A DNA stretch of 64,000 nt from an uncultured Candidatus Saccharibacteria bacterium. GTDB taxonomy: Bacteria; Patescibacteriota; Minisyncoccia; Phycocordibacterales; UBA9973. The stretch lies in NCBI GenBank assembly GCA_964596395.1, contig CAZQSY010000001.1:27763-91762 (forward strand). The letters run 5' to 3'. The position numbers were made by a program, and so were the translations under genes. Within the stretch, counting starts at the first letter, position 1. Each line of letters opens with the position of its first letter. Below are positions 27,671 to 35,463 of this stretch, one piece after another. The notes under the pieces are model-generated. The model was not told the DNA's origin. It saw only the letters and a list, made by a program, of their open reading frames with translations, and searched no databases.

Positions 27671-27671
27671 G

Positions 27672-27744
27672 AGCCGCCCCCGAGGATCGAACTCGGGACC
27701 CCAGCTTTACGAAAGCTGTGCTCTACCAACTGAGCTAGGGCGGC
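27672..27744 (-). tRNA. tRNA-Thr (anticodon CGU), no encoded CCA
   Basis: hand-folded: GCCGCCC acceptor, anticodon stem CAGCT/AGCTG loop TTCGTAA, T-loop TTCGATC. Confidence 0.75.
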
Positions 27745-27810: not shown

Positions 27811-27886
27811 TGGAGCCGTTGATCGGGATTGAACCGATGACCTCGTCATTACCAATGACGTGCTCTACCAACTGAGCTACAACGGC
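27811..27886 (-). tRNA. tRNA-Thr (anticodon GGU), CCA encoded
   Basis: hand-folded 76-nt cloverleaf; anticodon stem CGTCA/TGACG loop TTGGTAA. Confidence 0.8.
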
Positions 27887-31979: not shown

Positions 31980-32266
31980 CGCGGCTGAAGGGTGCTGACC
32001 CCTCGACCTCTCCCGTGCACTTATCCTATATTTTCATAAAGGCGTGGACTATATCTTCGCCGTGTCCCGTAAAAACGGAATTTAGGCGCTTTGGTATCTA
32101 GTCTCTACGGAGCCCCCGCTAAGGCGGGGTTCCCACGGTGTTCGCGTGCTCCGACACGAGGTCGGAGTTTAGCCTTCACCGTTATCCCAAAGAGTTTCAA
32201 TCCGCCCTTTCGGCGGAAAGCTGCAGTAATCTACAGGGGAGTGCTCTACCGTTGAGCTACAGCCGC
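31980..32266 (-). tRNA. tRNA-Asp (anticodon GUC; loop CUGUCAC) interrupted in the anticodon loop by a ~215-nt group I intron; mature 73 nt, no encoded CCA, non-canonical T-loop (GTCAGCA)
   Basis: perfect 7-bp acceptor GCGGCTG/CAGCCGC, D-arm GCTC-AACGGTA-GAGC, anticodon stem CTCCC/GGGAG split ~215 nt apart; G73 discriminator; alternative exon boundary would give UGC but G3-C70 argues against Ala. Confidence 0.6.
32018..32232 (-). ncRNA. group I self-splicing intron (boundaries +/-3 nt)
   Basis: conserved S element AAGAUAUAGUCC and R-like GUAGAGACUAGAUAC giving P7 GACUA/UAGUC; 5' exon ends in U, intron ends in G. Confidence 0.65.
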
Positions 32267-32878
32267 GTGTATGTATTTTTCAAACACATTTTTCTTCCTT
32301 TTCAGAAACAATCTTGATGTGCCGAGCTTATTATACATAAAATAATACAATTTCAAAGCGTCTGAGGTGCTGTACTGCAATCTGGAAAAATCTTTCTTTT
32401 TTGACCTATAAACACAGCCACCTCGCAAACCAAGCGCGCGAAGCTTTATGTATAAGCTGCGCATGAAGTCGTGCGACCCCGAAGTGAAGGCCAGCTGTAA
32501 AACCTTGTGTTTAGTTTTCCTGTTCTTGTGGACTTCCCCGGACCAAATATTCCCATCACCATCAAAGTAACCCCTCACAAAATGAGGCGTGTATTTCAAA
32601 GGTATGCGCGGAATTTTCAGGTATTTAGTTTTTCTCTCCCCGAAACCAATTTCTCGCAAATCGTCACACATTTCCTTGCTGCCAATCTGGATCCTGTATT
32701 TGGTACTCTCCCCGATTTTGGAAGACAAACGTACGCTGATTTTATGTTCAGACCTCAAAGCCTTCTTAATACTTTCTAAGAGTTTTTTGTCGCTAATCTG
32801 TATGCACCAAAATTGCCCGCCGCGTTTATTCACAGTTATGTATCCATCGGCGGCAAAAAAACCTAAAACGTACGCCAT
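32246..32878 (-). CDS. LAGLIDADG homing endonuclease (two-motif, single-chain)
   Basis: LGFFAADGYI and RGYFDGDGNI motifs; start reset to ATG 32878 (listed N-terminus is antisense translation of tRNA-Met); stop overlaps 5' exon of intron-containing tRNA. Confidence 0.7.
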   Translation of the reverse strand: MAYVLGFFAADGYITVNKRGGQFWCIQISDKKLLESIKKALRSEHKISVRLSSKIGESTKYRIQIGSKEMCDDLREIGFGERKTKYLKIPRIPLKYTPHFVRGYFDGDGNIWSGEVHKNRKTKHKVLQLAFTSGSHDFMRSLYIKLRALGLRGGCVYRSKKKDFSRLQYSTSDALKLYYFMYNKLGTSRLFLKRKKNVFEKYIHAAVAQR

Positions 32879-32991
32879 CTTCGGAGTCCATCTCTTAAAG
32901 AAATTCTTGTTGATTTTTATATGCACCGGCACAAATATATTATATCTAGTGACAGGATAATATACTAACCGTGCTGGGGAAAAAATTGCTG

Positions 32992-33067
32992 TGGTGTCGG
33001 GGGTGGGAATCGAACCCACGACCCTGGGCTTATGAGTCCCATGCTCTACCGACTGAGCTACCCCGAC
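32992..33067 (-). tRNA. tRNA-Met/Ile2 (anticodon CAU), CCA encoded
   Basis: hand-folded: GTCGGGG acceptor, D GCTC/GAGC, loop CTCATAA, T-loop TTCGATT. Confidence 0.7.
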
Positions 33068-33186
33068 ATAAGGTGGAGAATAGCATATTTCCAATCTTTT
33101 TCAAATTTGCAATTTTCTTTAATTAAGTTAGTATGTTAGGTACGAGCAGGCACGCTGCGCCAGATGGTTTGCCGTCTTAAAATTAT

Positions 33187-33257
33187 AGCGGGGTAGAGAA
33201 GAGGCATCTCGTAAGGCTCATAACCTTAAGACTCTGGTTCGATTCCAGACCCCGCAA
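33187..33257 (+). tRNA. second tRNA with CAU anticodon (Met/initiator/Ile2 undetermined), A1-A72 mismatch, no CCA
   Basis: hand-folded: (A)GCGGGG/CCCCGC(A), D GAGA/TCTC, anticodon stem TAAGG/CCTTA loop CTCATAA, T-loop TTCGATT. Confidence 0.55.
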
Positions 33258-33352
33258 CAAGCAAATTGATTTGCTTTTGCGCCGATTTTGCGGGTTAGCA
33301 AAAATGGCCGTTGCTAAGCAAAGCGAGGCAGGCCATAGGGGCGACAAGCAAA

Positions 33353-34000
33353 TTAAATATATCCAAACTCGGCGAAAATGTTTTCGTACAAGCTGATTAC
33401 CCTTCTCGTTTCATGCTGAGAAAGGCTGAAGTCCGAGCCCTCATGCGCTATTTTGTTGCGTACGTTGTGCGCGTCCCAGGCCAGGTCTAAGGTGCGAAAA
33501 CTCTCCCGGTCAGCCATTTTCAGTTTGTCCCCGACCGTGTCGCCTTTGAAGCCGCGCTCGTTTAGAAGGTCGTAAAGCATTAAATCTGCTTCAATCACGG
33601 CGAGCCGCCAGTCGTTCTCGCTCACCGAAAAAGCGTAATCCAAGACCTTCTTCCAGCGCGGATTTTTGAACACTCCCTCCTCCCGCGCTTTTTTCTCACG
33701 CAAGGCCTGGTTGTGTTTGTATTCCTCGAGTTCGTGGTGCAGATGCGCGTGCTCCTTTTTCCTAATTTCAAACATCCTGACCGTGGTGTAAATGATAACC
33801 GCGATGAAGAAGAGGGATAAGACAGTCATAACCGTATATATGCCGTGCAATGTTTCCCTGGTAAAGATAGCGCCGGCAATATCCGACAGAATGCCGTAAA
33901 GATATCCCGGGTTGAAAAATTTTGAATCCAAAAAAGAACCTTCAAGGTAGGGGCTCGTCTTTGAGAGGGTTTCAGCGGCATAAACGTACATAGCGCTCAC
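33353..34000 (-). CDS. membrane-anchored hypothetical protein with C-terminal HEPN-like domain (R-x4-H: VRNKIAHEG)
   Basis: one TM helix then soluble domain; HEPN assignment from motif only. Confidence 0.3.
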   Translation of the reverse strand: MSAMYVYAAETLSKTSPYLEGSFLDSKFFNPGYLYGILSDIAGAIFTRETLHGIYTVMTVLSLFFIAVIIYTTVRMFEIRKKEHAHLHHELEEYKHNQALREKKAREEGVFKNPRWKKVLDYAFSVSENDWRLAVIEADLMLYDLLNERGFKGDTVGDKLKMADRESFRTLDLAWDAHNVRNKIAHEGSDFSLSQHETRRVISLYENIFAEFGYI

Positions 34001-35463
34001 TTATTATCCCGCAAATCTTCTTCTATGGCAAACAAAGACATGTCTTTCGCATAAGGGGCGGTGAATTCGACGCCGAAAGGCAGGCCGTCTTTCGAGAAAC
34101 CAGAGGGAACAGAAATCGAGGGCAGGCCGGCTAAATTCGCTGAAACCGTAAAAATATCCGAGAGATACATCTGCACCGGGTCTTTCTTTTCGCCCAGCTT
34201 GAAAGCGGTCGTGGGCGTGGTGGGGGTCATCACAAAACCAACCTCTTTGTAAATTGTTTCGTACTCTTTCATGATTTCGCGGCGCACTTTCCAGGCCTGG
34301 TTGTAATAAGCATCGTAGTAGCCGTGTAAAAGAACATACGCGCCCAAAATCACTCTCCTTCTGGTTTCCCGCCCGAAACCGGTTGACCGGCTTTTTTTCA
34401 TGACTTCAAAAATATTGTGACCTTCCTGCCTCAACCCGTAACGCATGCCTTCTAGACGAGCTAGATTAGTAGAAACCTCAGCCGGCAGAATTATATAGTA
34501 GGCCGGCAGAGAATATTTCAGATACGGCATTGAAACGTCTTTCGTCTCATAACCCTTGGCGCGCAATTTTTCCAGCGTTTCTTCAAAATTTTTCAAAACC
34601 TCCGGGTCGACACCCTCTTTCAAAAAATCACGCGGGATGCCGATGACAGAGGCGGAGGAGGGCAAGGATTTTTGAGCGTCTGGTTGAGCCCCGGAGGGGC
34701 GACCCGAGGACCGAAAAAATCCTTGCCCTCCGGAGCTTACATCAATAGACGTCGCGTCCATCTCGTCTTTGCCTACGATGCATTCGTAAATTATTTTCGC
34801 GTCTTCGGATGTTTTAGCGAGCGGCCCTATCTGGTCGAGCGAAGAAGACAAAGCGGTAAGGCCGCGCCGCGATACGGCACCGTAGGTCGGCTTCATACCG
34901 ACAATCCCGCAGAAAGCCGCCGGCTGGCGGATTGATCCGCCGGTGTCGGAACCCAAAGCTCCGAGCGCCATGCCGGCGGCCACCGCCGCGGCCGAACCGC
35001 CCGAAGAACCACCGGGCACCCGGGAAGGGTCGAGAGGATTTCTGGCCGGACCATAAGCAGAATTCTCGGTCGAAGAACCCATGGCGAATTCATCCATATT
35101 CGTACGGCCGATGAAAACCGCGCCGGCCTCTTTTAGTTTTTCTATCACAAAAGCGTCATAGCTCGCCGTATAATTTTCGAGAATCTTGGAAGCAGAGCTC
35201 GTTTTTCGGCCGGTTATCAAGATGTTGTCTTTGACGGCAAGCGGTATGCCGGTAAGCAGCGCGCCTCTGCCTGCTTTTATCATTTCGTCGGAACGTTTCG
35301 CCTGTTCCAGCACGTCATCGAAAACCTCCAGGAAAATATTCAGTTCCTTGTTTTTTGCTTCAATATTTTTTAGGCAGGCCGAAACCAAGTCAACCGAAGT
35401 CAGCTTGCCCTCGCGCATCATTTTACCCGCCGCGGAAATTGTCAGACCCTTAACGTCAATCAT
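33997..35463 (-). CDS. gatA: Glu-tRNA(Gln)/Asp-tRNA(Asn) amidotransferase subunit A
   Basis: amidase signature GGSSGGSAAAVAAG, Ser-cisSer-Lys triad context; contains low-complexity insertion. Confidence 0.85.
   Translation of the reverse strand: MIDVKGLTISAAGKMMREGKLTSVDLVSACLKNIEAKNKELNIFLEVFDDVLEQAKRSDEMIKAGRGALLTGIPLAVKDNILITGRKTSSASKILENYTASYDAFVIEKLKEAGAVFIGRTNMDEFAMGSSTENSAYGPARNPLDPSRVPGGSSGGSAAAVAAGMALGALGSDTGGSIRQPAAFCGIVGMKPTYGAVSRRGLTALSSSLDQIGPLAKTSEDAKIIYECIVGKDEMDATSIDVSSGGQGFFRSSGRPSGAQPDAQKSLPSSASVIGIPRDFLKEGVDPEVLKNFEETLEKLRAKGYETKDVSMPYLKYSLPAYYIILPAEVSTNLARLEGMRYGLRQEGHNIFEVMKKSRSTGFGRETRRRVILGAYVLLHGYYDAYYNQAWKVRREIMKEYETIYKEVGFVMTPTTPTTAFKLGEKKDPVQMYLSDIFTVSANLAGLPSISVPSGFSKDGLPFGVEFTAPYAKDMSLFAIEEDLRDNK

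Follow-up and report, generated by a model that had tools for sequence, protein, structure and literature searches.

Free-standing homing endonuclease genes (HEGs) that lie beside an intron lacking an open reading frame (ORF) are a known kind of arrangement in phages. In collaborative homing, reportedly described by Zeng, Bonocora and Shub in 2009, the instances are said to be F-CphI beside a cyanophage psbA intron and the DNA-polymerase case of phage T3/ΦI; mobile introns have been suggested to pass through such an arrangement as they form. In phage T4, the free-standing GIY-YIG HEG SegB lies within a cluster of tRNA genes and promotes inheritance of the neighbouring tRNA region, and we know of no ORF–tRNA overlap or promoter swap reported for it. 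Here we describe a locus in the window, a 64,000-nucleotide (nt) stretch of contig CAZQSY010000001.1 from an uncultured Candidatus Saccharibacteria bacterium, in which a LAGLIDADG HEG stands between tRNA-Met(CAU) and a tRNA-Asp(GUC) gene interrupted by an ORF-less group I intron. We conclude that the ORF probably encodes a functional, mobile, free-standing LAGLIDADG homing endonuclease and that the neighbouring intron spreads along with it. The window gene represents, at this locus, a LAGLIDADG cassette that is linked to tRNA-Asp, widespread and so far unremarked.

As in collaborative homing, the HEG adjoins a gene with an ORF-less intron, and the presence of the one appears statistically linked to that of the other, in a test uncorrected for phylogeny. 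Unlike the phage cases, the locus belongs to a cellular bacterium, its enzyme is of the LAGLIDADG type and the interrupted gene encodes a tRNA; about half of the HEG-bearing genomes are intronless, the HEG is apparently wedged between a promoter and its gene, and cleavage at the intron insertion site is a prediction. With T4 SegB it shares a free-standing endonuclease gene amid tRNA genes, whereas SegB belongs to the GIY-YIG family, stands in a phage context and is associated with no intron.

In 2026, Nakagawa et al. (PMC13011429) described Patescibacteria group I introns that interrupt tRNA-Asp and tRNA-Asn at position 35/36. That study counted 3 tRNA-Asp introns in 95 complete Patescibacteria genomes, sought HEGs solely within introns whose length exceeded 500 bp, and concluded that the tRNA introns are mostly without HEGs and infrequently transferred; an adjacent LAGLIDADG gene is absent from its text. 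The LAGLIDADG HEG, the 35/36 tRNA intron and, in phages, the free-standing HEG beside an ORF-less intron are all known kinds. In the literature searched, the cellular tRNA context, the proposed capture and replacement of a promoter, the use of a stop codon donated by the tRNA gene and the connection with Patescibacteria introns presumed immobile appear to be new.

The endonuclease and its gene

The protein matched Pfam family PF14528 (LAGLIDADG_3) in two stretches (E 4.5e-12, 46.5 bits, cut-off 22.5; search made with the ATG version of the ORF), and its score against PF00961, 21.5 bits, fell just below the cut-off of 23.1. Both LAGLIDADG motifs, LGFFAADGYI and RGYFDGDGNI, are present in one chain, and their catalytic aspartates, D29 (AADG) and D126 (DGDG) in the numbering of the 228-residue protein, do not vary in either of two alignments, of 36 and 52 homologues; about 50 further positions are likewise invariant. 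An AlphaFold2 model (predicted local distance difference test, pLDDT, 89.9; predicted template-modelling score, pTM, 0.87) has two alpha-beta-beta-alpha-beta-beta-alpha domains, with D29 and D126 at the ends of helices 17–29 and 112–126. The best Foldseek match was I-Tsp061I (E 1.6e-10), followed by E-DreI, I-AniI and the I-OnuI group (all with probability 1.00 and at 12–20% identity); I-DmoI-type enzymes and the bI3 maturase were also matched, and a sequence search of the PDB gave marginal matches only. Like I-Tsp061I, I-DmoI and I-AniI, which come from archaeal or organellar introns, the protein is compact (~200–230 amino acids) and has two LAGLIDADG helices ending in a catalytic Asp; unlike them, at the 12–20% identity given above, it is not encoded in an intron or intein and carries 18 additional conserved residues at its N terminus. 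The ratio of non-synonymous to synonymous substitution rates was 0.06–0.12 in the closest homologue pairs. A degenerate or maturase-only protein was ruled out by the invariant catalytic aspartates, the confident fold and the existence of HEG-bearing loci without an intron.

The features of the locus are listed below. Coordinates are those of the forward strand of the window, and tRNA-Met(CAU), the HEG and tRNA-Asp all lie on the minus strand.

33067–32992, minus strand: tRNA-Met(CAU), called by ARAGORN (Rfam tRNA, 70.9 bits); flanks the HEG upstream and anchors the locus on the left
32970–32939, minus strand: promoter-like box before the HEG start, comprising GGTTAG (32970–32965), TATATTAT, CCTGTCAC (32956–32949), TAGA and TATAAT (32944–32939)
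32932–32246, minus strand: LAGLIDADG HEG (Pfam PF14528), 228 amino acids, GTG start, TAG stop in the D-loop of tRNA-Asp
32356–32330, minus strand: promoter-like element in the 3' coding region of the HEG, TTGAAA-N15-TATAAT, within the codons for LKLYYFMYN; ends 63 nt before tRNA-Asp +1
32266–32233, minus strand: tRNA-Asp(GUC) 5' exon, positions 1–35, starting GCGGCTGTAGCTCAACGGTAGAGCACTCCCCTGT and ending ...CCUGU, placed by alignment to an intronless allele
32232–32018, minus strand: group I intron, 215 nt, ORF-less, at anticodon-loop position 35/36; full-length match to RF00028
32017–31980, minus strand: tRNA-Asp 3' exon, CACGGGAG...CAGCCGCG, CCA not encoded

The ORF as delimited mechanically spans 33094–32246 on the minus strand, and its ATG version (32878–32246) gives the 210 amino acids reported by the first-pass annotation of this DNA. 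We place the start instead at the GTG at 32932–32930, which yields 228 amino acids, because the N-terminus xPIYKKVNKxFFKKW is conserved and an ATG or GTG stands 18 codons before 'MAY' in 78 of 83 loci. The annotation had also taken the N-terminal 72 amino acids of the long ORF for antisense translation of tRNA-Met, to be discarded; tRNA-Met lies on the same strand as the ORF, the extra stretch is read-through of that gene, and only the first 54 codons are surplus. The rest of its description was borne out: the stop codon, said to overlap the tRNA 5' exon by ~20 nt, lies 21 nt inside it as the TAG of the D-loop, and the double-motif LAGLIDADG gene is free-standing, outside an ORF-less intron and apparently intact, with a family match above cut-off and Asp retained in both motifs of a confidently predicted LAGLIDADG fold.

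Association of the endonuclease gene with the intron

We scanned metagenomes with the T-arm of the window tRNA-Asp, requiring at least 750 nt of upstream sequence; this tRNA-anchored sample avoids selecting on the HEG. The loci divided as follows.

HEG absent: 58 without intron, 6 with intron
HEG present: 12 without intron, 10 with intron
HEG fragment: 2 without intron, 1 with intron

HEG and intron were positively associated (Fisher odds ratio 8.1, p = 5.6e-4, in a test that ignores phylogeny). The earlier suggestion that the mobility of intron and HEG has been uncoupled is right in so far as each was found without the other; against it stand this association and the intron-only alleles, 5 of 6 of which retain an in-frame stretch of the final ~30 HEG codons (LKLYDFMYN...KMRL and stop). 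These five alleles are recent HEG-deletion derivatives. Among HEG-less intronless alleles, at least 12 keep either a long in-frame remnant or only the 27–28 nt TTGAAATTATACGATTTTATGTATAAT. All four HEG/intron states include identical tRNA-Asp sequences, and a protective tRNA-Asp polymorphism in HEG-bearing intronless genomes was rejected on that ground. As a natural series, the alleles (empty, with the HEG alone, with HEG and intron, with intron and HEG scar) match the steps proposed for the formation and decay of mobile introns.

In a second set, made up of HEG-bearing species, tRNA-Asp carries a 194–253-nt intron at 35/36 in 34 of 76 species and is intronless in the other 42, compared with the 3 introns in 95 genomes of PMC13011429. 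On the 5' side of the intron site, the D-arm shows 9 variants among the 34 intron-bearing alleles (mean identity 0.87) against 31 variants among the 42 intronless HEG-bearing alleles (0.68); for acceptor stem and T-arm, the two groups do not differ in diversity. From the alignments, this homogenisation of the D-arm looks like a co-conversion tract 5' of the insertion site.

The association, the adjacent ORF-less intron and the structural similarity to I-AniI and the bI3 maturase might also be explained if the protein mainly aided folding or splicing of the neighbouring group I intron in trans. We regard this as very improbable: no intron is present in 42 of the 76 HEG-bearing species or in 12 of the 22 HEG-bearing metagenome loci, the catalytic residues are kept and the gene does not lie inside the intron. 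Moreover, a Patescibacteria tRNA-Asp 35/36 intron self-splices in vitro without protein (PMC13011429); it is a Microgenomatia intron, more divergent than the Paceibacteria one of that study discussed below.

Spread, niche and probable mobility

Database searches returned 2804 relatives of the HEG protein; the best 120 are all 58–72% identical to it and ~205–235 amino acids long. In a scan of one genome per GTDB species, at least 480 species encode a relative. Nearly all of the best 80 species are titled as candidate Parcubacteria/Paceibacteria lineages (Nomura-, Vogel-, Zambryski-, Campbell-, Kaiser-, Taylor-, Giovannoni- and Harrisonbacteria) or generically as Patescibacteria; two are titled otherwise (Nitrospira sp. 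and Azotimanducaceae) and may be mis-binned. The niche is fixed. The HEG adjoins tRNA-Asp(GTC) in 76 of the 77 loci with readable downstream sequence, and in 69 of these 76 the ORF ends within the tRNA, 46 of them using U8-A9-G10 as the stop, whereas the TAG of the D-loop serves as stop for the window HEG. A tRNA-Met is almost invariably the upstream neighbour, in many cases together with a block of gatC, gatA and a hypothetical protein; many of the related loci examined have the order gatC-gatA-hypothetical protein-tRNA-Met-tRNA-Met-[HEG]-tRNA-Asp.

In other Paceibacteria (L208, L201, L090) the same spacer between tRNA-Met and tRNA-Asp is filled by an unrelated GIY-YIG gene of ~98 amino acids, whose ORF (L208:3418-3714) likewise ends inside tRNA-Asp ('...KTQMRP' and stop). 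Small nuclease genes seem to have a hotspot in this tRNA cluster. A GIY-YIG gene also lies between the tRNA-Met genes in L098, L165, L183 and L089.

Divergence of the HEG follows that of its flank only weakly. Among 33 loci with gatA, pairwise identities of HEG and gatA were nearly uncorrelated (Mantel r = 0.15, p = 0.07), and individual pairs are discordant in both directions: L039 and L086 share 77% identity in gatA and 43% in the HEG, L001 and the window 70% in the HEG and 53% in gatA. Decayed copies were found, truncated in L072, L082 and L149 and frameshifted in L210. Given the discordance with gatA, the decayed copies, the use of the same spacer by GIY-YIG genes in other genomes and the patchy distribution, the pattern is that of a selfish HEG cycling through gain, decay and loss, not of a vertically kept host gene.

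We weighed this against a domesticated, vertically inherited and immobile host protein, such as a tRNA-operon regulator or a factor binding DNA or RNA, that is often lost in streamlined genomes. Strong purifying selection, the same locus across many candidate Paceibacteria lineages, the intimate promoter sharing with tRNA-Asp and a conserved box suggestive of regulation would all fit such a protein. We nevertheless consider it unlikely, since both catalytic aspartates are invariant, the HEG tree is discordant with that of the flanking gatA, and the gene is absent from about three quarters of the loci with the tRNA-Asp type of the window, including loci with identical tRNA-Asp sequences; remnants and pseudogenes are present, and the niche is also used by an unrelated GIY-YIG nuclease.

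Compact (~200 amino acids) distant relatives with 28–43% identity are encoded on at least 528 phage contigs in IMG/VR. In those examined (L223–L302) no phage vector with the same cassette was found: the relatives do not adjoin tRNAs, and 1 of the 80 contigs has any tRNA within 2 kb. In L181, the 3' end of tRNA-Asp (...CCCCATCAGCCGCGC) is partially repeated twice downstream of the gene, with similar segments of ~200 nt in between; this resembles the att-type repeats left by tRNA-integrating elements.

Insertion point and a proposed promoter exchange

The insertion point was located in two pairs of empty and occupied alleles with homologous flanks, L108/L051 and L098/L125. In both, the spacer after tRNA-Met can be aligned as far as a −10-like element, whose sequence is TAGTTTATT or TGGTAATTT where the allele is empty and TAGTGTAAT or TGGTATAAT where it is occupied. 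Without the cassette, tRNA-Asp +1 lies 0–9 nt beyond this element; with it, (A)CCTGTCAC comes next, then the HEG from its start codon onwards, and finally tRNA-Asp. By these alignments the cassette sits exactly between the −10 element of tRNA-Asp and its +1.

The left part of the box before the HEG start is homologous to the −10-like element before tRNA-Asp in empty alleles. Its CCTGTCAC(G), a part of the inserted cassette, has the sequence of the tRNA-Asp anticodon loop with the insertion site of the intron and is 90–100% conserved before the HEG start in both the long and the short form of the box. In 36 of 83 loci the TGTCAC core lies at a fixed distance from the start codon, and 37 boxes could be aligned. 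At the other end, 60 of the 76 HEG-bearing loci have a TTGAAA/TATAAT-like element 59–73 nt upstream of tRNA-Asp, and the same 27–28 nt, followed by ~8 nt and tRNA +1, persist in alleles without the rest of the gene.

Three other accounts of the box fared poorly. A conserved RNA hairpin or mimic of the anticodon arm would need a stem that is perfect in few loci only; a box following the idiosyncrasies of the resident tRNA conflicts with its conservation whatever the tRNA type; and an origin of the left block as a relic of the D-loop is weakened by its homology to the empty-site promoter.

We propose that the captured tRNA-Asp promoter would transcribe the HEG, and that a replacement promoter inside the HEG would transcribe tRNA-Asp. 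The enzyme would cut both strands of HEG-less alleles, either in the 5' half of tRNA-Asp or just upstream of it, and repair from an HEG-bearing donor would copy the cassette. The ORF-less intron, 35 nt downstream and without an endonuclease of its own, would be carried by co-conversion and might add immunity; the adjacent HEG would then be its missing mobility factor. Loss of HEG copies by deletion would account for the patchy distribution. The architecture would be an unusual one, in which an HEG captures a tRNA promoter, the tRNA supplies the stop codon and the HEG coding sequence carries the replacement tRNA promoter. The adjoining HEG offers a concrete mobility mechanism for one class of Patescibacteria tRNA introns that had been deemed HEG-less and largely immobile (PMC13011429), and the endonuclease-less tRNA introns of Paceibacteria may have their mobility enzyme next door.

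Candidate targets of the enzyme

The predicted cut falls at either of two candidate sites. Candidate (A) is the junction of promoter and tRNA +1, which is split by the cassette itself, so that HEG-bearing intronless genomes would be stable; candidate (B) is a segment of tRNA-Asp.

Several points weigh against our proposal, the choice between two sites among them. Empty alleles show little conservation 5' of tRNA-Asp, which sits badly with a LAGLIDADG site of ~20 bp across the junction and, as it concerns the upstream half of the site, counts against candidate (A). The first-pass annotation had suggested that the HEG may target the neighbouring tRNA genes; the mature tRNA sequence alone is an unlikely target, because identical intronless tRNA-Asp genes occur with and without the HEG. 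Box and internal element are putative promoters by virtue of their sequence conservation; a sigma-70 consensus scan called neither, and the internal −35/−10 spacer, at a suboptimal 15 nt, lies outside the window of that scan. The association test takes no account of phylogeny. Distances between introns and between HEGs are uncorrelated (r = 0.09), which does not support strict co-transfer; the two are linked but not locked together. Finally, long conservation at one locus could reflect a host-beneficial function.

Candidate (B) underlies a rival account, which we consider possible but clearly the weaker one: a trans-acting collaborative homing in which the enzyme recognises canonical tRNA-Asp DNA, GGTTAG-N8-CCTGTCACG, from D-loop to anticodon loop. 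The 35/36 intron or a variant D-loop would protect HEG-bearing genomes, and the promoter box would be a non-cleaved pseudo-target for autorepression. The box does share both blocks and their 23-nt register with canonical tRNA-Asp DNA, and its score against the tRNA-Asp of its own locus was 11.1, compared with 5.8±1.2 for shuffled sequences and 6.2–7.0 for other tRNAs. HEG-bearing alleles with GGTTAG-N8-CCTGTCAC have the intron in a ratio of 19:1, the others in a ratio of 15:41 (odds ratio 52, p = 7e-8), and the canonical intron-bearing cases are scattered over the HEG tree. Canonical-allele lineages without the HEG were sampled via the neighbouring protein, which left two informative loci only, L208 and L220; both lack a LAGLIDADG gene and have canonical intronless alleles. 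The homogenised D-arm beside the intron site would also be expected.

Other observations fit this account poorly. For the allele type of the window (CGGTAG, with a D-loop one base shorter), identical exons occur in all four HEG/intron states; the left block of the box has its homologue in the promoter resident in empty alleles and need not derive from a D-loop; the intron would change only 4 of the 23 target positions; and the 19:1 ratio could stem from exon co-conversion or shared descent.

I-TevI autorepresses through an operator that resembles its homing site. By analogy, the CCTGTCAC box might be a target-like sequence over the enzyme's own promoter, a hypothetical counterpart of that operator. 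On this tentative view GGTTAG-N8-CCTGTCACG would be recognised twice, in the tRNA-Asp gene, where it is cleaved, and in the promoter, where it serves as a pseudo-target for autoregulation; the ORF-less 35/36 introns and the unusual D-loop variants of Paceibacteria tRNA-Asp would be immunity devices, and the tRNA introns of Patescibacteria deemed HEG-less would be mobilised in trans by a gene next to them. If true, collaborative homing would have its first case in a cell as opposed to a phage, at odds with the published view of these introns as largely immobile. The family is compact (~228 amino acids), may recognise a nearly universal bacterial sequence and could be a useful meganuclease scaffold.

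The tRNA-Asp intron and neighbouring genes

The joined exons are called tRNA-Asp(GTC) by ARAGORN, and intronless alleles align to them base for base across the CCTGT–CACG junction. This alignment, together with the position of the HEG upstream of tRNA position 1 in the comparisons of empty and occupied alleles, excludes misplaced intron boundaries and an HEG lying within a larger intron. The introns of the window and of L001 match RF00028 end to end (33.6 bits, E 1.8e-6 and 47.7 bits, E 1.2e-9, respectively), both below the gathering score of 50. In 34 of 34 aligned introns a U·G pair stands at the 5' splice site, and the window intron ends in G; 33 of 57 predicted pairs show compensatory changes across the 34, in P2, P3 (long-range), P4–P6, P8 and P9. 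The window intron is of the same class and at the same site as the introns of PMC13011429, and is homologous to the Paceibacteria tRNA-Asp 35/36 intron in its Table S3.

The tRNA-Asp of the window has a short D-loop (AACGGTA) and a T-loop that reads GUCAGCA rather than the usual UUCRANY. This unusual type of T-arm is present on at least 120 metagenome contigs.

A second tRNA-Met(CAT) (33187–33258, plus strand) lies upstream of the first and divergent from it. The minus-strand tRNA-Met is preceded by a sigma-70-like site at 33077–33104 (minus strand; TTGAAA, 16 nt, TATTCT, with TG), and the orientation of the first tRNA-Met differs between related loci. In many of the related loci examined, a hypothetical protein of ~200–215 amino acids is encoded between gatA and the tRNA cluster; it matched no significant Pfam family, and the window coordinates given for this region are 33353–34000 and 33997–35463 (minus strand).

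In its intron mode, ARAGORN reported that several other tRNA genes in related loci carry insertions of ~180–270 nt, which may be additional group I introns. They affect tRNA-Thr GGT (L028, L034, L049, L051, L060, L073, L081 and L208), tRNA-Met CAT (L008, L025, L032, L042 and L044), tRNA-Arg GCG (L030 and L036) and tRNA-His (L065). The tRNA-Thr genes of the window (27671–27744 and 27811–27886) are intronless.

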